Origin: Trueperaceae bacterium
Lineage (GTDB): Bacteria > Deinococcota > Deinococci > Deinococcales > Trueperaceae
Length of the DNA: 64,000 nt
Assembly (NCBI GenBank): GCA_965213925.1
Contig: OZ243927.1
Coordinates: 3,392,001-3,456,000, forward strand
Direction: 5' to 3'
Part shown: piece after piece, positions 7,709 through 43,970 of the stretch
Layout of the letters: every line of letters begins with the position of its first letter
How positions within the stretch are numbered: the first letter of the stretch is position 1
Program-made: the position numbers and the translations under genes
The notes under the pieces: generated by a model
What the model saw: the letters and a program-made list of their open reading frames with translations, nothing else
Told to the model about the DNA's origin: nothing
Database searches by the model: none

Positions 7709-7740
7709 GTGTGCGGCGAACGCGCGCGTTAGCCGCACTA
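7709..7740. repeat. 32-bp palindromic module-boundary repeat (A|A arms)
   Basis: GTGTGCGGCGAAC-GCGCGC-GTTAGCCGCACTA. Confidence 0.85.
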
Positions 7741-36456: not shown

Positions 36457-36891
36457 ATGGATGCATTTATTCCCCCTCCAGCACAATCGACGGGCGTTTT
36501 TCATACCTTAGGTCTCACAACCCGACCGCATGATCTAATCAAAGTGGTGAAAGGCGGTCTATCTGTTCAAGTCTTTCGCGTATTAGCCGAAACGCTGGGC
36601 GTCAGCGACGCGGTACTCGCGAATTTAGCAGGCATCAGCGGCACAACCTTGACCCGCCGCAAGCGCGCAGGGCAGCTGACACCCGACGAGAGTGAGCATG
36701 TGCTCAGGATTGCCAACCTACTAGAACGCGCAGCACAGGTGTTCGAAGACGTCGGTGACGCAGCGGAGTGGCTCAAAACGCCTAACCTCAGCCTCGGCAA
36801 CGTCACGCCGCTTAGCTATGCCGACACGGAAATAGGTGCCCGCGAGGTCGAGAACCTACTCGGTCGGATAGACTACGGCGTCTACAGTTAA
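36457..36891 (+). CDS. Antitoxin, Xre/MbcA/ParS family
   Basis: TLTRRK..GQLTPDESE, AAEWLKTPN.SLG..TPL, LGRIDYGVYS; TAGAAT-N6-ATG. Confidence 0.92.
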   Translation: MDAFIPPPAQSTGVFHTLGLTTRPHDLIKVVKGGLSVQVFRVLAETLGVSDAVLANLAGISGTTLTRRKRAGQLTPDESEHVLRIANLLERAAQVFEDVGDAAEWLKTPNLSLGNVTPLSYADTEIGAREVENLLGRIDYGVYS

Positions 36892-36917
36892 ATTGCCCTT
36901 CACCTTACGCAATATGT

Positions 36918-37403
36918 ATGGCTGACGTCCTCACAGCCTGGCGACTTGTCAGACCTAAATATGGCAACCAGGCTGATGCTTTTAGCGGTGAAGGTTCGCG
37001 TCTCTTCGGTGGGCGTTGGAACTCGCCGGGTGTGCGTGTTACTTACGTCAGCTCGAGTCTGTCGCTCGCCACACTAGAGACGCTCGTCCACGCGGACAGG
37101 CGGCGCTTCGAGCGAGACTACGTCGCCTTCAAGCTCTACCTACCTGAAGCGCTCGTGCTCGAGCTGCGCAGTGAGGATTTGCCCGAGGAGTGGCGGGCGA
37201 GGGCCGTGAGCGAGGGCGCGAGGCAAGTTGGAGATGCGTGGCAAGCGGCGCAGGCGAGTGTCGCCTTGTCTGTACCTAGCGTAATCGTGCCTGCGGAGCG
37301 GAACTATCTGCTCAACCCTAGACACCCGCAGTTCAGCGAGCTAACGATTGAAGACCCGCAACCTTTTCGCTTCGACGCACGGCTCGCTGACAAAGGACGA
37401 TAA
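36918..37403 (+). CDS. RES-domain toxin (MbcT/ParT family)
   Basis: WRL, FSGEG...GGRWNSPG, LATLETLVH, VPSVIVP, NYLLNP.H; follows the Xre antitoxin. Confidence 0.92.
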   Translation: MADVLTAWRLVRPKYGNQADAFSGEGSRLFGGRWNSPGVRVTYVSSSLSLATLETLVHADRRRFERDYVAFKLYLPEALVLELRSEDLPEEWRARAVSEGARQVGDAWQAAQASVALSVPSVIVPAERNYLLNPRHPQFSELTIEDPQPFRFDARLADKGR

Positions 37404-37512
37404 AGTCATACTCGCGGCTTTTCATGATCGAGAAGGTACCGCAGTCGCAATGCGTGTGGTCGGGTAGCAGGAGACCGTCACTGGCCTCCCGCCCCTAAGA
37501 GCCGTGCGTGCG

Positions 37513-39948
37513 GTAGGGTAGGATGCCAGCGAGCTGCCTATCAAAGATAGCGCTTTTCCAACATCCCCCCTCCGAACCCCGCATGACCGCTTTCCGTGTC
37601 ACGGGGCTCTCCAGTAATCTCAACATGAAAGTCCTTTCCCGTGGTAGTGCCCTTTATGGATGTCTTGGTGGCAGGTGAGGCAGACCACCAGCGTCTTGCG
37701 TCGGCGAGCCGACATCCTTTGCATCCATTCGGGCCGTGACTTACGCCCTCTTTGTTCAAGGTCTGCCAGTTTTCGGACGTGATGCACTTCGACGTGCTCC
37801 ACCGACCCACAAAGCTCACAGCTTTGCGCTAAAAGGCGGTCCACCACTTCATTACGCCCGTTCCAAATCTTACTGTTCTGGTTGTCGTCCAAGGCTACCC
37901 ATTTGTTCCACCGTAACGGGATGCCGCCAAAGTGGGTGATGAGTGGCTTCTTTTTAGGACCACGGTCCACTTTGACTTGAAGGACTTTATAGCTGCCCTC
38001 CTTGAGGTCGATGGTGGTGCGGTAGCGCCGATAGATTTTCTGGCAACTCGTCCTGAACTTATTCGCCAGCGTTTTCACTAGCGAGAGTTCTGTGACGCGC
38101 TTGAGTCGGCCCAGCGTGTGGAGGTTGTAGGCCATGCGGTAATACTGCACGACCCCGCGGTATTCCGCTTGATATTGGCTGACGATGCTGTAAGCATCGC
38201 TGCTGAGCCTTTGTGGGAGGTGAATGGGCTTGCCGCGTCGCATGTACTTGGCGCAGTGCGCTTTCATGACGTGCGACGGTACCCGGAGTCCGACGCTGCC
38301 GTTGATGCAGCGTTGTCCCCGGTGGTCGTGTTTATCGTCAGCGTGAAGAATGTGGACCTCATAGCCCAGGAAACGCGCTTTCTGCGTGCGCGCGTGGGTC
38401 AGCAGGGTCTTATCCTCGCTAAGCTCAAGCTTGAGTTCGTCGCGTAAGAAGGCGGCAATCTCTTGCTTGATAGCCACGGCCTCGTCTTTTGGCCCTTTCA
38501 GCCCCAGCAGAAAGTCATCGGCATACCTTTGGTACCACAATCGCCGGAAGTTCGGGTCATCGGGGTCGCGCGACGGCATTGTCTGGGCCTGCTGGCTCAG
38601 TTGCCGCGCGGTCTCCCAGTTCCCTGCTTTCCGAGCGTCGTGAGCGGCTTTGGCGATGGCGACATACGGGGGGTAGGTCTTGCGGCGTTCGCCGCGTGTG
38701 TAAGCTGGTATCAGTTCGTGCTCGACAAACTTGTCCAGCCTGTCCAGAACCAGGTTGGTGAGGATTGGACCGACAATCGACCCTTGCGGCACACCGCTGT
38801 AGGTCTGGTGAAAGGTCCAGTTCTCCAGGTAGCCAGCTTCGAGCAGCCCCTTGATAAGCCGCAGGAAGCGGTTGTCGTGGAAGCTCTTCTGCAAGATGTT
38901 CAACAAGACATCGAAGTTAATCTTGTCGAAACACGAGCAGATATCTCCCTCGATAAACCACTTTGTACCTCGACCCTCTTGGGTGACTTTGCGCAAAGCT
39001 GTGTGGCATCCCCGTTTCGGTCGAAAGCCGTGAGAACGGTCGCTGAACCGCGGTTCATAATAGGCTTCCAGGATGGAGCGGATAACTTCTTGAAGAAGTT
39101 TGTCCGACCAGGAAGGCATCCCTAGAGGCCGCATCTTGCCATTCTTTTTGGGAATGTAACGGCGTCGTACCGGCGTCCACCGATACCGCTCTTGGCGTAG
39201 CGCCTCGATGATGGTATCAATTTTCGCTAGGGACATCCCGTCCACGGTTTCGTCCGAGGCACCTGGTGTCAGTGCGCCTTCGTTCTTGTAGAGCTTGGCG
39301 TAGGCGCGCAGGTAGAGGTCAGGCCGGTAGAGTAGGCGATACACCCTTTTAACCGGCAGGCCACGCTGGCCGCGTTCACGTAGGATGGTGAGTACCGTTT
39401 CGGCGGTTCGCATCTCGCGTACCTCACAGTTCCTTTCCATCATGATTACCTGGTCTCCTTCGCCCTGCGAACGGCTCTCCCGCTCTCCCTGGTGGGGCGT
39501 GACGCCCACGACTACTACGAGACCTCCGTTACCTTAGGACTCGCGTCCCTTAGGCAATCCCGTGTTTCGTCACTGAGGAACGTGCTAGAACGACTTAGGC
39601 TCGCCACTCATAGCCTTGGATGAACTCATTGTTCATCGCCCATCAAGCAGAGCGTCATTTGGACGAAACTTGAATCCAAATGTCCTGATGGCGTCGGTGT
39701 ACAGACGTGCTACCGACGGGTGTGCGTGACCACCGCTGGCTATTGGCGTTCAAACAATCCAGTCTTAGCCTTATCATTCAGGCGTTGCAGAGCCGCATCG
39801 TACACGTCTTCCTTTGCGCTCCGCTTTAATGCCATGCTCTTGTCCCCTCCCTCCTTTCGAGCTCAGGTTAGGCATCCGCCTCGGGGTCGTTTGCCCTGAA
39901 CCCCGGCCAACTCCGTTGGCAATTCACTCAATGCGCACCACGGCGCAC
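37513..39948 (-). mobile_element. Inner group II intron with intact RT/maturase/HNH ORF
   Basis: 5' end GTGCGCCG at 39948; domain V GAGCCCCGTGACACGGAAAGCGGTCATGCGGGGTTC and domain VI ending CCTACCCTAC at 37513. Confidence 0.92.
37620..39413 (-). CDS. ltrA: Group II intron reverse transcriptase/maturase with HNH endonuclease (ML-lineage-like)
   Basis: RPLGMPSWSDK, SHGFRP, GVPQGS, RYADDF, FLGY, C-terminal CELC..EVHH..CLTCH; likely start ATG 39413. Confidence 0.95.
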   Translation of the reverse strand: MRTAETVLTILRERGQRGLPVKRVYRLLYRPDLYLRAYAKLYKNEGALTPGASDETVDGMSLAKIDTIIEALRQERYRWTPVRRRYIPKKNGKMRPLGMPSWSDKLLQEVIRSILEAYYEPRFSDRSHGFRPKRGCHTALRKVTQEGRGTKWFIEGDICSCFDKINFDVLLNILQKSFHDNRFLRLIKGLLEAGYLENWTFHQTYSGVPQGSIVGPILTNLVLDRLDKFVEHELIPAYTRGERRKTYPPYVAIAKAAHDARKAGNWETARQLSQQAQTMPSRDPDDPNFRRLWYQRYADDFLLGLKGPKDEAVAIKQEIAAFLRDELKLELSEDKTLLTHARTQKARFLGYEVHILHADDKHDHRGQRCINGSVGLRVPSHVMKAHCAKYMRRGKPIHLPQRLSSDAYSIVSQYQAEYRGVVQYYRMAYNLHTLGRLKRVTELSLVKTLANKFRTSCQKIYRRYRTTIDLKEGSYKVLQVKVDRGPKKKPLITHFGGIPLRWNKWVALDDNQNSKIWNGRNEVVDRLLAQSCELCGSVEHVEVHHVRKLADLEQRGRKSRPEWMQRMSARRRKTLVVCLTCHQDIHKGHYHGKGLSC

Positions 39949-39983
39949 ACTTTCACCGCACACGGCTCAAGCCAATCACGAAG

Positions 39984-40118
39984 CTACCGCGATAAGCTCG
40001 TAGTAGCCCTGAAGATTCGCCCTCTCAGATTGCGAACCCGCCAATTGACAGCTCGCCAGTTCACAGCGTGCCAGTCCGTAGGTCCTTCGGTTTCGTTTGC
40101 AGAGCTTCGGGCTCGCAT
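39984..40118 (-). pseudogene. 44-aa N-terminal remnant of the outer intron's RT
   Basis: MRARSSANETEGPTDWHAVNWRAVNWRVRNLRGRIFRATTSLSR*; the W..VNW....VRNL..RIFRA pattern is the RT N-terminal motif of CL-type intron proteins; it sits directly before domain V. Confidence 0.8.
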
Positions 40119-41060
40119 CTAACTTCCCCTTAGTTGGCAACCTTCAGAACATCTCTCTAGGAGATTGACCAGTCCCACGTCAGCACCCTTTCGGGTTGAG
40201 TATCGGCTCTATCTAGCCCCTTATGATTTCGGGTCGCCTTTCGGCGGCTAGCCTTCGCTTCTTGGGACCTCCTATGCCCGCTGGAGCGTTCGGCGTTCCT
40301 TACGGTTCGCTTACCTGCAACAGGACTCCAACGGGGTTTCCGTGTTCCACTTGTGTGAGCTGCGACCGGGTTAGGCGTGCTCTCTACTCCGGGGTCATGG
40401 TGTCCTCGTGCAGAACGCGCGTACTCTCTGCACCTGTTGAGGCGAGATACCTTATCCTTAGCCTCGACCCGACCATGCCTTATCAACCATCCTTCGACAA
40501 ACCGAACTAACGGAGCTTTGACCGAGCATTCACGTTCGTTCGCCTTACCGGTCTTTCCCTCACCCGAGTCTCTACGATGGTTTAGATTCTCTTAGGCTTT
40601 ACCTCCAGCTTCACACCTTGCCATTACTGGCAACGCATGTGGAAGTCGGGAATGAGCCTGGACACTGGCTCAGAGTTCTTTTCCTCCTTCCTAACTCACT
40701 CACTTCAAGCGACTTCACGTCGCACACGCGCGCGTTAGTCGCACAATGGTTCGTGTGTTGAAAAAGGGTTAAGGGGAAGGTCGAATAACGATGTAATACG
40801 GCTTTCGGGTAACTCCCCTAGGGATTACCTCGAGCGTAGCGAGTAGAAAGAACTACGGATTTCAATGAGTGCGTTCGGACTTCGGTGAAACCCACTGCTC
40901 GTCACTTTGTGGTGTCATGTTGATAGAGCACATAAGAAGCTCAGCTGAGCGCTAGTTCGGCTACAAAGATACTTGTGGTTGTACTTAGCCACATGACGGT
41001 ATACTCTGGGCATCCAAGGTTTGAAGACAAGCCTAGTTCTTGCCGAGCGGAGGGAGTCCA

Positions 41061-43970
41061 ATGGGTAGAGAAGTTTTTCGTTTCCACATCGTCAGACCAC
41101 CAGACGAAAATTTTTTAGAGAAGTTGGGTATTCTCCTCAACCCTGAGGATAGAGAAACTCCTTCTATGAGAGAACTTAGAGAGGCGAAAACACGCGAGGA
41201 GGCGGAACGAGCTGCCACGCGCAACAAAGCTTCAGACGAGTATCTAGACCCTGAGGACGTGCCCGACAATTACAAAACGTTAGCCGAGTGGCAAAAGCAA
41301 AATCCCCACGCACCTCAGGAGCAGGTAGCTAAGGAGGCAAGCATCATCCTCGAGCGCGACCCGCAAGAGGTTGTGGCTAGCGAGGCCTTCCAGTCTCTCC
41401 TCGCTAGGGGAGCAGCTAGCGAAGCCAGCGATTTAATACTAGGTGAACAAGGTTCATCGAAGCAGGCCGTAAAGTATCTACTTGCCGTCAGTAAAGCAGC
41501 TGGCAAGCGTCCCGTCCTCCCCCTCAATCTTAAGTTTGCACCAGGTCCACAGAGCAACACAATGTCTGAGCCTGAGACTTCTAAAATAGATTCGCCGGTC
41601 CCAAGCTTGGTTCAGCTTCAGGCATTGAAGCGGCGTCTGATAAGCTTAAGCCCGTCTAGCCCAACACTCACACTTCAGCAGCAAAGATTCATGCAAGATG
41701 TAAGCCTCCCTCAAGACGACACGACCGGAGATAGTCCCGGCAGAGCAGAACCTCCGCAGCCTGTAGTTATCAGTGACGTCTCCCTCAAGGAGACTGAGGT
41801 CAGCCAACTAAAATCTCTTCAGCTCAGCGCTGACGCATCCATTTCAGAGGCAGTGAATGAACTCGATAGGCAAATGCTGCTTAAGGCCGAGGTCTCAGTA
41901 GCTCCCGCGAGTGCACCTGTGGTCCGGAGTGGGATGCTTGTGATGAGTGCGACCGCATCTGCTGGTGGACCGCAAGCGCTCACTGAATTCAAGGGGGGCT
42001 ACGTTCAAGGGTTTAAGGTCTCTGACCTCGAGGTAGCGGAGCGTGACCTAAAGAGATACGAAGCAGGAGAGATTGCTCACATCGAGAACGCCCTTATGGG
42101 CGAGCGCCGGGTGAGGGAGCATATTAGAAATACGCTACGCGAGGACGTCACCTTTGTGGAGACAAGTATCCTTGAGGCTACAGAGGAGGAACTCCAGACA
42201 GAGGAGAGATTTGGTTTAACGAGAGAAGCGCGTAACGTGCAGCGCTCAGAGGTCGAGAAGCGTGCCGGCTTAAAGCTGGATGCGAGCTACGGACCCTCGG
42301 TAAACGTAGAGACCTACGCTGACTTTTCCTTAACCACGTTTAGTGAGTCTGTCAGCACGACCGCTAGCGAATACGCGAAGACGGTGTCCAGCTTGGCAAC
42401 TGCCCGGATACAGCGTACCTTTAGGGAGCAGCGCCTTACCCGCCGAGTGGAGTCGGTCGAGGAGACAAACTCTCACGAGATTGACAACCGGAACGCTGAC
42501 GGTCACACTGTCGGAATCTACCGCTATGTCGATAAGGTTTACAGCGTCCAGGTTCGTAACTATGGTGTTAGGCTAATGCTCGAGTTTGTCCTTCCTGAGC
42601 CAGGAGCTAATCTCCTGAGGATTGCTAGCCAACCCGTCGGTCAGGTGCTGGTTTTGGACAAGCCGGAGCCGCCGAGGGTGAATGGTAAACCTCTCGAACT
42701 ATCCGATATTGATCCAAATAACGATCTGTGGCGCGTCGTCGCGGCCCGGTATGGTGCCGCGGTCGAACCGCTTCCCGAGAAAAAGGTAGTCTCCCTGACG
42801 CTTAAGTTCGACGAGAAGCCTAACCTCGAGAGAGACGAGGTGAGCCGCCGCGTCGACTCGAATACGGACGAGATCCGGAGCGTTCAGGTCGTTTGGGACG
42901 AGGGCATACTCAAGGTTCCGGATGGTTACGAGGCGCTTAGGGTCTGGGGCACCTCCCTAGGTTTCAACACGACCATAGCTGTATCTTTCGACAAGCATAG
43001 AGCTGAGATAGTTGGGGCAAAACAGCATGTGAAAGTTTATGGTTCAGATTACGTCCGCACCGGCCAAATGCTGGGTGGCTTCAAAGTGCGGGCCGGGATG
43101 GGCCGGGCTGTTGACCTTATAGAGCGCTACGGTGCAGGCGGTGACCTGTACGTTTCGGCTATTTCGTTAGAGACAGAGGAACACAATTATCTCTCCATGG
43201 TAGGTTTCGTCGCCGCCGCTCATGGTCCCCTGGTCATCGAGGCTCTCTGCACACCTACGGAGGAAAGCTGGAACACCTGGCGTTACGAGGTATATACCGC
43301 CATCATGGAGGCGTACAGACAGCAGCAGGCAGCCTACCTAGAAGCGCTGGCTGCCGAAGAGGTGGCGCAAGGGACGAGCATTGACGGGCGCAACCCTGCT
43401 ACTAATCGAGAAGTTGAGAGGGACGAGATCAAGCGGGGCGTGGTCACCTTATTGCGCGGCAGCAAGCCCGACACGGGCTCACTTGCCCAGGATGGCTTTA
43501 GCCCTGACGTCGCGAAGGCCGCTGCACACGGACCCCTCATCAGGTTTTTCGAGACGGCTTTTGAGTGGGAGCACATGGTCTTCGAGCTAGCGCCCTACTT
43601 CTGGGCGAACCCGGATCGTTGGGACCAACTTCTCAAAGCCGACGATCCTGACCCAGAACATAGAAGGTTTCTTCAAGCGGGCTCAGCGCACGTCACCCTC
43701 CCGGTCAGACCTGGGCACGAGTTCTACGCCGCTGCGGCTGTCAGCTTGCTACAGATGACTGGAGGCTCACTTAAGCCTGAGCTATTTACTTCCGAATTAC
43801 CTAACGTCATCCTTCGCGAGTTGTTGGTCGCATCCTTGGAGGCTTCTATCCTCAGAAAGCAGAGGCAAACCGAAGGTCCCGTCGATGTAGGAAAGCCCTT
43901 CGAGGTGACCGTACCAACAAACCTGGTTATCTTGCAGGAGGGCTCGGACCTAAACGAGGCTAAGACGTGA
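41061..43970 (+). CDS. Large hypothetical protein (~970 aa), function unknown
   Basis: Long ORF with GGAGGGAG RBS; conserved-looking blocks LKRYEAGEIAHIEN, YRYVDKVY..QVRNYG.RLMLEF..PEPG, FFETAFEWEHM, FLQAGSA.V..PVRPG. Confidence 0.8.
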   Translation: MGREVFRFHIVRPPDENFLEKLGILLNPEDRETPSMRELREAKTREEAERAATRNKASDEYLDPEDVPDNYKTLAEWQKQNPHAPQEQVAKEASIILERDPQEVVASEAFQSLLARGAASEASDLILGEQGSSKQAVKYLLAVSKAAGKRPVLPLNLKFAPGPQSNTMSEPETSKIDSPVPSLVQLQALKRRLISLSPSSPTLTLQQQRFMQDVSLPQDDTTGDSPGRAEPPQPVVISDVSLKETEVSQLKSLQLSADASISEAVNELDRQMLLKAEVSVAPASAPVVRSGMLVMSATASAGGPQALTEFKGGYVQGFKVSDLEVAERDLKRYEAGEIAHIENALMGERRVREHIRNTLREDVTFVETSILEATEEELQTEERFGLTREARNVQRSEVEKRAGLKLDASYGPSVNVETYADFSLTTFSESVSTTASEYAKTVSSLATARIQRTFREQRLTRRVESVEETNSHEIDNRNADGHTVGIYRYVDKVYSVQVRNYGVRLMLEFVLPEPGANLLRIASQPVGQVLVLDKPEPPRVNGKPLELSDIDPNNDLWRVVAARYGAAVEPLPEKKVVSLTLKFDEKPNLERDEVSRRVDSNTDEIRSVQVVWDEGILKVPDGYEALRVWGTSLGFNTTIAVSFDKHRAEIVGAKQHVKVYGSDYVRTGQMLGGFKVRAGMGRAVDLIERYGAGGDLYVSAISLETEEHNYLSMVGFVAAAHGPLVIEALCTPTEESWNTWRYEVYTAIMEAYRQQQAAYLEALAAEEVAQGTSIDGRNPATNREVERDEIKRGVVTLLRGSKPDTGSLAQDGFSPDVAKAAAHGPLIRFFETAFEWEHMVFELAPYFWANPDRWDQLLKADDPDPEHRRFLQAGSAHVTLPVRPGHEFYAAAAVSLLQMTGGSLKPELFTSELPNVILRELLVASLEASILRKQRQTEGPVDVGKPFEVTVPTNLVILQEGSDLNEAKT

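Follow-up and report, generated by a model that had tools for sequence, protein, structure and literature searches.

The window, the whole 64,000-nucleotide stretch of Trueperaceae bacterium DNA that was analyzed, contains a group II twintron on its minus strand. The inner intron occupies positions 37513..39948 (2436 nt), begins with GTGCG and ends with AC, and shares its boundaries with relatives in other genomes. The outer intron is ORF-less and is split into a 5′ segment (39949..40725, 777 nt), which likewise begins with GTGCG, and a 3′ segment of 54 nt, such that removal of the inner intron leaves 831 nt (40725..39949 joined to 37512..37459). A prior sequence-only reading had proposed that repeat site, outer intron, and inner intron form a nested chain, with GTGCG 5′ ends at 40725 and 39948 and domain V/VI 3′ ends at 37513 and 37459, and an outer intron of 831 nt on its own that retains 44 codons of a reverse transcriptase (RT). 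Each of these elements was recovered in the present analysis.

The 5′ segment comprises domains I–IV and the 5′ half of domain V (DV; 39949..39968). This half consists of 20 nt that carry the AGC triad, the 5′ strands, and the GAAA loop plus 2 nt, and it doubles as IBS2 and IBS1 of the inner intron. The DV 3′ half (37499..37512, 14 nt) pairs with the 5′ half at 13/13 positions and has the same sequence in all four copies in the genome. It is followed by domain VI (DVI; 37459..37498), in which fold prediction places a bulged A 7 nt from the 3′ end. The inner intron had been proposed to split the outer DV just after the GAAA tetraloop, and the exact insertion point was found to lie 2 nt 3′ of the loop.

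The exons of the outer intron are the two parts of a REP-like palindromic repeat. The 5′ exon (40726..40743) forms the left part and contains IBS2 at −14..−8 and IBS1 at −7..−1, and the 3′ exon (37451..37458) forms the right part. At least 40 REP-like repeats related to this exon site are present genome-wide. The twintron lies in an intergenic region and runs antisense to the genes on either side, and a promoter and terminator scan of 37200-41300 returned nothing better than shuffled sequence.

Features of the outer intron

Inspection of the outer 5′ segment reveals the exon-binding sites of a group II domain I. EBS2 (40506..40512, 7 nt) is complementary to positions −14..−8 of the 5′ exon and EBS1 (40416..40422, 7 nt, in a hairpin loop) to positions −7..−1, giving complementarity at 14/14 positions adjoining the splice site. 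The Rfam family RF02012 (group-II-D1D4-7) also matches the outer intron, at 40588-40673, with 39 bits (gathering score 34). The RT gene remnant (39984..40118) corresponds to the N-terminal part of such a protein and matches Pfam RVT_N with E = 1e-4, at 23 bits and hence under the curated cut-off of 28.1. This remnant was detected at three genomic sites.

The outer intron is collinear, from its very start to roughly position 582, with a full-length host intron from another genome (locus L034; nhmmer E = 5.7e-9). This intron and that of locus L036 are the nearest full-length relatives. Both are collinear with the outer intron, share the RF02012 match, and encode proteins that have RVT_N, RVT_1, and GIIM domains and no HNH or other endonuclease domain. 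A full-length RT of the outer type, for which a search elsewhere in the genome had been suggested, was not found. The genome yielded no RT apart from the inner protein, present in four copies, and no GIIM domain, so the outer intron is without a cognate maturase here.

The inner intron and its protein

A frame at 37620..39443 on the minus strand encodes a protein of 607 residues from ATG with RT, maturase, and HNH endonuclease domains (RVT_1, 3.8e-34; Intron_maturas2, 9.8e-11; AI2M-like_HNH, 8e-14), the GIIM match being only 0.051. The frame is open and is stop-free in three full copies. Domains V and VI of the inner intron (37513..37611) match RF00029 with 46 bits (gathering score 40; E = 7e-6). 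Together with the GTGCG/AC ends, an RT with an aI2/LtrA-type maturase and HNH, and EBS-IBS pairing, these features identify an autonomous group II intron, and an ML/IIA type is supported, a label given by Pfam domain types only. The earlier proposal that the two introns are of different lineages was upheld for the ML-like inner intron, on the strength of these three domains, and was left unconfirmed for a CL-like outer intron, for which the evidence is the 44-codon remnant with its sub-cut-off RVT_N score.

Inner EBS2 (39722..39727, 6 nt) pairs at 5/6 positions with target positions −13..−8, and inner EBS1 (39665..39670, 6 nt, in a hairpin loop) pairs at 5/6 with −6..−1, with a G-G mismatch at −2. 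An A stands opposite C at the delta position, and the fit to the present target is thus imperfect. Both sites covary with their targets, EBS2 across 27 distinct relatives.

Rejoining of the outer domain V

When joined in silico, the outer DV halves present the AGC triad, the GAAA loop, and 13/13 pairs of the RF00029 DV consensus as scored by script, and only 0.16% of 5000 random 34-mers reached 11 or more DV pairs. The joined DV/DVI folded at −45.6 kcal/mol (z = −4.6 versus shuffles), and the possibility raised beforehand that the rejoined sequence might fail to fold as DV/DVI was not realized. The AGC triad, helices, GNRA loop, and bulged A expected of a group II intron are therefore all found in the outer DV/DVI after removal of the inner intron. 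A permissive Rfam scan of 36500-41500 (E up to 10) returned no match to the outer DV, an expected outcome for a hairpin in two parts.

The spliced outer intron was also compared with an uninterrupted relative in a same-genus genome (locus L067 in G002). The alignment was gap-free across the junction, with 358/407 aligned positions identical, which confirms a true twintron, in which removal of the inner intron restores the outer one. G002 and a second genome of the same genus (G001) each contain an outer-type intron piece with uninterrupted DV/DVI, scoring 62.6 and 44.1 bits against RF00029, respectively, where 62.6 bits is the score of the L067 relative and not of the rejoined window sequence. 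The two pieces represent natural empty sites for the inner intron. No RVT_1 match was found in either genome.

Copies within the genome and soundness of the assembly

The inner intron is present in four copies in the genome that are 100% identical (2436/2436, 2436/2436, and 1847/1847). All four are lodged in the DV of outer introns that have themselves diverged, with 3′ parts matching at only 50/53 and 44/54 positions between copies. Compensatory changes in the DVI helix were observed in copies 3 and 4, whose 3′ exons carry different versions of this arm of the repeat. Between copies 1 and 2, which lie at two different repeat sites, identity is 100% across 3293 nt of outer and inner sequence and breaks off precisely 18 nt upstream and 8 nt downstream. 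Truncation at the 5′ end affects two of the four outer copies, and the pieces in G001 and G002 are also fragments. Every outer DV half in the assembly (5′ halves, n = 3; 3′ halves, n = 4) adjoins an inner intron, and BLAST found no uninterrupted outer-type DV in the assembly. In a comparable case, identical inner copies in diverged outer copies are interpreted as independent insertions by Mohr et al. (PMC2882425).

The inner 5′ junction is bridged with zero differences by a 712-nt contig in two DNA runs of one sample, which may be the window's own source. At the inner 3′ junction, only overlapping short contigs were obtained, which fall short of the 31-nt bridging rule. The same junctions recur at four loci with different flanks and in more than 20 independent assemblies of other organisms. 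On the question of whether the junctions are assembly chimeras, a possibility named by the sequence-only reading, bridging thus speaks for the 5′ junction and is lacking by that rule for the 3′ junction, and the architecture is repeated elsewhere. An assembly chimera is unlikely.

A lineage that homes into domain V

Relatives of the inner intron were retrieved at 55 loci, with at least one boundary mapped in 44 and both flanks in 24. Most are from genomes of cyanobacteria, and other phyla are represented too. The sequence across the insertion was scored as DV if it contained the AGC triad and at least 6/8 basal DV pairs; 21/24 two-flank loci scored positive, compared with 0.76% of random positions. 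The DV 5′ half motif was present at 23/29 loci (random, 0.9%) and the 3′ half motif at 34/37 (random, 16%). A fixed-register DV template gave at least 11 pairs at 14/24 loci, a count that underestimates hosts with a DV 1 nt different, and it was replaced by the small-shift test. The three negative loci comprised one true non-DV site (L038) and two sites with DV-like halves that are mutually mismatched (L019 and L029). At least L038, L039, and L055 lie in non-intron targets and are nested inside the clade in a quick tree (SH-aLRT support), so specialization for DV is not absolute.

EBS-IBS pairing accounted for 260/324 possible pairs over 27 distinct intron/target combinations and was reached by 0/5000 target permutations, a significance that is overstated because related sequences are not independent. 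Group II RT/maturase domains were found in 17/26 upstream host frames, 16 being GIIM-type (with HNH present or absent) and one ML-type. The same conserved site is thus occupied in different host introns with varied proteins, as is typical of an intron-targeting lineage. The common DV position in varied hosts, together with the covariation of EBS1 and EBS2, places the inner intron in a DV-homing lineage, for which DV appears to be the regular homing site and not the accident of one locus. The clade was seen in cyanobacteria, Pseudomonadota, Bacteroidota, Planctomycetota, and Chloroflexota, in addition to the present non-cyanobacterial host.

Among 127 other genomes of the same family, a single one encodes a relative of the inner protein; the two share 46% identity, and the site is not a DV. 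The nearest relatives are cyanobacterial, at 73-77% identity, and neither PsaA nor PsaB was found in the present genome. The inner intron probably arrived in this genome recently and by horizontal transfer.

Discussion

The arrangement is very probably explained by retrohoming of a mobile ML/IIA intron of a DV-targeting lineage into the DV of a resident ORF-less intron in a REP-like repeat. According to this model, the resident group II intron would first have homed into a palindromic repeat in an intergenic spacer, and the ML/IIA-type intron would then have retrohomed into the DNA encoding the resident's DV. Inner EBS2 would pair with the 5′ strand of the distal DV helix and EBS1 with the GAAA tetraloop and the next 2 nt, with integration directly 3′ of them, and the conserved basal part of DV would fall in the distal 5′ exon, the region usually read by intron proteins. 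As the insertion splits the catalytic hairpin, the host ribozyme is expected to be inactive until excision of the inner intron, with the help of the protein it encodes, restores a continuous DV. We infer that splicing is sequential, inner before outer, and the outer ribozyme might then draw on a maturase in trans, as had been suggested at the outset. The invader would have arrived recently and taken every outer-type DV present, and the outer introns, having no cognate protein, are probably little more than landing pads here.

Whether the outer intron still splices at all bears directly on this model. It could instead be a relic that never splices, in which case the nesting would have no splicing-order logic and the halves would have persisted by chance as a safe landing pad free of genes. 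We give this interpretation nearly an even chance. The cognate maturase is missing from this genome and from the two same-genus genomes, the outer copies and their relatives are often truncated or fragmentary, and nothing selects for outer splicing at a locus that is intergenic and antisense to both neighbors. Against this, EBS-IBS pairing is still perfect over 14 nt in the full-length outer copy, its rejoined DV is intact, and the compensatory DVI changes between copies point to past selection on structure. Some group II introns, moreover, are known to self-splice without protein.

The identity of copies 1 and 2 in their outer parts as well is unexplained by independent invasion alone. Its extent and sharp ends would suit a composite unit, in which an outer intron carrying the inner one reverse-splices into new palindromic repeats and the copies do not stem from separate DV invasions; composite mobility is named as a possibility for twintrons by Mohr et al. 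(PMC2882425). With the outer DV split, however, the composite RNA should be without a working outer active site, and both an outer-type RT and a GIIM maturase are absent from the genome. Copies 3 and 4 are, furthermore, identical inner introns in diverged outer parts, and elsewhere the inner lineage occupies unrelated host introns, all of which makes the composite unit improbable as an account of the copies. That the nesting is an artefact, arising from misassembly or from DV-like halves matching by chance, has a negligible probability: a four-copy repeat is a classic misassembly spot and short-read contigs break near the 3′ junction, but the recurrence of identical junctions in different flanks and organisms, the contig across the 5′ junction, and the 13/13 pairing of halves that match a natural uninterrupted DV all argue otherwise.

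Both DV twintrons and intron-targeting introns are already known. The Euglena gracilis chloroplast psbF twintron likewise has a group II intron within the DV of another (Copertino and Hallick 1991, as described in PMC8393795 and cited in PMC4424553), and in Euglena twintrons the internal intron generally must go first. The psbF case is organellar, in an essential gene, at a single locus, and built of small, degenerate, ORF-less introns. By contrast, the present locus is bacterial and intergenic, its inner intron is a retroelement that encodes an RT and is autonomous, and insertions of its relatives at the DV site recur across many hosts.

The YADD-homing B-like introns M.a.I5, UA.I3, P.l.I2, and B.th.I3, as outlined by Tourasse and Kolsto (2008, PMC2504315), and the intron nests of Methanosarcina described in PMC4424553 are also relevant. 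As in the present case, YADD-homing introns form a lineage that regularly targets a conserved motif essential for catalysis in other group II introns, which yields twintrons and a lasting homing site. Their target is the RT catalytic motif in domain IV, mostly of related introns, whereas the present lineage targets the ribozyme DV of several intron types.

The Thermosynechococcus elongatus TeI3/TeI4 twintrons (Mohr, Ghanem, and Lambowitz 2010, PMC2882425) resemble the present ones in being bacterial, with identical inner copies in diverged outers, which were interpreted as recent independent insertions, and intergenic or other non-essential targets. Their inner intron is ORF-less, their outer intron protein-coding, and the inner one is inserted in domain IV between two start codons; the present twintrons show the opposite division of roles, with DV as the insertion site. 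Sequential splicing was demonstrated for the Trichodesmium erythraeum Tr.e.I7/Tr.e.I8 twintron (Pfreundt and Hess 2015, PMC4649490). There the inner intron lies in host domain I and not in DV, both introns are protein-coding, the host is a conserved gene, and the pertinent part of that report describes no lineage-wide site specificity. A full-text literature search, the scope of which did not extend to the bacterial group II intron database and some earlier intron papers, returned no description of a bacterial DV-homing lineage.

A wider claim is put forward tentatively, its likelihood falling somewhat short of even. The cross-phylum ML/IIA clade may be a dedicated hyperparasite of group II introns of several types, including its own, which homes into the catalytic DV through pairing with the distal helix and GNRA loop and so silences the host ribozyme for as long as the invader remains unspliced. 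DV is the most conserved and catalytically essential part of every group II intron. A DV-homing lineage would thus find a target ready wherever other group II introns live, would never hit a host gene, and would inactivate the resident element as soon as it arrives, making it a clear-cut natural example of a parasite that preys on parasites.

There is also a practical consequence, in that annotation pipelines seeking an intact DV will miss such outer introns, a problem also stated in PMC8919778. The system lends itself to the questions of how an RNA-guided retroelement is aimed at a structured, palindromic DNA target, whether invasion can control the mobility of resident introns, and how nested introns order their splicing, the last of which is relevant to models of how complex intron arrangements arose. 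If the lineage is indeed a dedicated hyperparasite, it may influence which of a genome's introns are able to remain mobile.

Twintron Architecture and the Rejoined Domain V

Two GTGCG intron starts (40725 and 39948) and two domain VI (DVI)-type ends (37513 and 37459) are read on the minus strand, placing an inner intron (39948-37513) within an outer intron (40725-39949 plus 37512-37459). Rfam matches at this locus comprised a domain V (DV)/DVI element at 37513-37611 (RF00029, 46 bits) and a domain I element at 40588-40673 (RF02012, 39 bits), and no further match appeared there with the E-value relaxed up to 10. Directly before 39948 lies the 5′ half of a DV, consisting of the AGC triad, both 5′ strands, and a GAAA loop plus 2 nt; the 14 nt after 37513 form the corresponding 3′ half. 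When the two outer DV halves were joined in a script, they formed all 13 DV consensus pairs of RF00029, whereas at least 11 pairs are reached in only 0.16% of random 34-mers. The sequence-only reading held that the inner intron splits the outer DV, and the rejoined DV with its downstream DVI does fold as such a structure (−45.6 kcal/mol, z = −4.6).

An uninterrupted DV/DVI is present in an outer-type intron piece of the same-genus genome G002 (62.6 bits), which serves as a natural stand-in for Rfam scoring of the joined window sequence. Positions 424-831 of the in silico spliced outer intron aligned with this piece, gap-free at the junction and with 358 of 407 positions identical. A shorter uninterrupted piece occurs in a second genome of the genus, G001 (44.1 bits). 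The two start/end pairs, the rejoining of the split DV, and the gap-free match to the G002 relative confirm that the nested arrangement is real and that its anatomy had been read correctly.

The Outer Intron and Its Repeat Site

The outer intron comprises 777 + 54 = 831 nt. Its exon-binding sites EBS2 (40512-40506) and EBS1 (40422-40416), both on the minus strand, are together complementary to all 14 exon bases beside the 5′ splice site. A 44-codon ORF (40118-39984, minus strand) gives a weak N-terminal reverse transcriptase (RT) match (RVT_N, E = 1e-4) that falls below the Pfam cut-off. Over about its first 582 positions, the outer RNA runs collinear with the host introns at L034 and L036, two loci in other genomes occupied by relatives of the inner intron. 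These hosts match the same Rfam family much more strongly (110.6 and 68.9 bits); their proteins combine RVT_N, RVT_1, and GIIM and lack an endonuclease domain. The collinearity and common Rfam family identify the outer intron as an ORF-deleted member of this kind.

The outer intron has as its exon and homing site a REP-like palindromic repeat around a 10-nt GC-rich self-complementary core. Exact copies of the core number 47 on contig C1 and fall into three clusters. Loose matches to the full 26-nt site number at least 40, and two unoccupied repeats match all 14 intron-binding site positions. Family members lie at window positions 7712, 14600, 16984, 20824, 25463, 40726, 48607, 55161, and 59977 and elsewhere, with clusters on C1 at 0.8-0.9, 2.6-2.7, and 3.4-3.5 Mb among accessory genes. 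The outer arms of the repeat covary.

The twintron locus is intergenic and antisense to both neighbors, which are a RES/Xre toxin-antitoxin pair on one side and a 976-aa ORF followed by a patatin-like gene on the other. The Xre-like antitoxin and RES-domain toxin occupy 36457-37403, ending 48 nt from the outer 3′ exon repeat. A conserved ∼75-nt element at 40788-40874 (minus strand) has five genome copies of 76-84% identity, the others lying near C1 positions 4171669, 260832, 2579834, and 3224802; it has two predicted hairpins with one compensatory pair and no Rfam match.

The Inner Intron and Its Copies

The inner intron (2436 nt) encodes a protein of 607 aa with its ATG at 39443. Pfam identified RVT_1, Intron_maturas2, and AI2M-like HNH domains, so that the predicted protein carries the domain set of mitochondrial-like (ML) introns with IIA RNAs, a label assigned by domain types. 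Of the two lineages suggested, ML-like is supported for the inner intron by this domain set; CL-like was not established for the outer intron.

The inner EBS sites were located through a domain I alignment of 30 relatives by seeking positions that track the 5′ exon. This covariation gave EBS1 at 39670-39665 and EBS2 at 39727-39722 (both minus strand), each pairing with five of six target positions. In the window's own genome (G000), the fit includes a G-G mismatch at −2, and the base preceding EBS1 is unpaired with +1. The guides would fit perfectly a DV with different post-loop bases, as in some cyanobacterial hosts, which suggests that the inner intron came from such a host.

G000 contains four copies of the inner intron, the first being that of the window. 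Copy 2 (C1:3474247-3477513) is 100% identical to the window twintron, including 18 nt + 8 nt of flanking repeat, where the identity stops. In copy 3, the outer 5′ part is reduced to its last 140 nt. Copy 4 (C1:2670202-2672103) has a truncated inner intron, cut off at codon 29 of the protein-coding frame; this reading frame runs open upstream into unrelated flanking DNA (618 aa open). The inner copies do not differ from one another (2436/2436, 2436/2436, and 1847/1847), and the outer 3′ parts have diverged (50/53 and 44/54 matching) with compensatory DVI changes. Mohr et al. interpreted the same pattern in Thermosynechococcus as the result of independent, recent insertions into outer introns that were older and dispersed (PMC2882425).

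Each outer DV half in the G000 assembly adjoins an inner copy; no outer DV was found there in uninterrupted form. An outer-type RT, expected elsewhere in the genome if a maturase acts in trans, was not recovered: the only RTs in G000 (96.9% complete) are the four inner copies, and no GIIM domain was found, leaving the outer intron there without a cognate protein. G001 and G002 have no RT at all, and their DVs are intact.

In a sample that is possibly the source of the window (DNA sequencing runs X1 and X2), one contig bridges the inner 5′ junction. Another carries the uninterrupted DV of a variant outer intron, and a further contig matches the window's upstream flank and continues into an empty repeat; related insertion-free DNA thus exists in this sample. 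Over window positions 39982-40693, X1 and X2 show many variant letters at about half depth, a pattern suggesting that the sample also contains either a related strain or another, diverged outer-type intron; the sequence concerned is absent from the assembly.

DV as a Recurring Insertion Site

Scanning species-representative genomes with the inner protein revealed 55 loci (61-77% identity), mostly cyanobacterial, the rest being from Alpha- and Gammaproteobacteria, Spirosoma, Pirellulaceae, Anaerolineales, and further groups. Mapping of intron ends with nhmmer located the 5′ end in 30 loci and the 3′ end in 38; 24 loci had both and 44 had one or more, and the 11 with neither were left out of the counts. 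The AGC triad plus at least six of eight basal DV pairs spanned the insertion at 21 of the 24 two-end loci, compared with 0.76% of random positions. The misses were L038, a real non-intron site, L019, and L029. At L019 (Chamaesiphon) and L029 (Pleurocapsales), both halves are DV-like yet from different hosts, with 5/8 and 4/8 basal pairs, an arrangement suggestive of recombination between inner copies resident in different hosts. The 5′ half motif alone was present at 23 of 29 loci (random, 0.9%), and three of the misses (L042, L043, and L053) resemble a DV on visual inspection, with a GAGA loop. The 3′ half motif was present at 34 of 37, a weak test given its 16% random occurrence. At L021, an apparent GUGCG start directly after the host DV 3′ half may mark a third intron, nested or adjacent.

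Among 26 upstream reading frames, 16 had RT or maturase domains of GIIM type, with HNH present or absent, indicating that the invaded elements are genuine introns and of several kinds. One of the 26, in the L032 host, encodes the invader's own ML-type domain set, so the inner lineage invades its own kind too. At L031 as well as L032, the host resembles the invader in its DV 3′ half and DVI.

Across 27 distinct intron/target combinations, EBS1 and EBS2 made 260 of 324 possible pairs with their targets. None of 5000 target permutations equaled this, a figure inflated by relatedness of the sequences, although several clear double changes underlie the pairing. A quick tree placed the window protein within a cyanobacterial subclade (SH-aLRT 91) and nested the non-DV members L038, L039, and L055 among DV-resident proteobacterial members (supports 90-99). 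From this nesting, DV homing looks ancestral for the sampled clade, and a few members appear to have escaped it into ordinary genes, including a Fic and an AbiEi gene. The 127 other same-family genomes yielded one hit, a more distant ML-type intron (46% identity) outside DV.

Discussion

The insertion is exact, DV is its target, the guides match and covary with that target, and the host DV is physically split; in G000, the inner element is intact and has been recently active. On the established model of group II introns, the inner ribonucleoprotein would reverse-splice into the DV site of double-stranded DNA, the other strand would be nicked by the HNH domain, and the RT would copy the intron. 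In RNA, the outer DV would form only once the inner intron has left. The identity of copies 1 and 2 extends to their outer parts; candidate routes to this are composite mobility, DNA recombination, and sequential mobility that relied on an RT no longer present.

Earlier reports describe related arrangements. The first twintron described, in Euglena psbF, is a group II intron within the DV of another (PMC8393795), the same domain as in the window. Known bacterial twintrons include those of Thermosynechococcus, with insertion in domain IV (PMC2882425), Trichodesmium, with insertion in domain I and sequential splicing demonstrated (PMC4649490), and Methanosarcina (PMC4424553). Another known intron lineage targets the RT genes of other introns at their conserved catalytic YADD motif (PMC2504315). 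A full-text literature search of incomplete coverage found no report of a DV-homing bacterial lineage, and an earlier description is possible. The single twintron is on its own another case of a known arrangement; what appears new is the lineage-wide, cross-phylum homing to DV, which is of clear interest to mobile-intron specialists.
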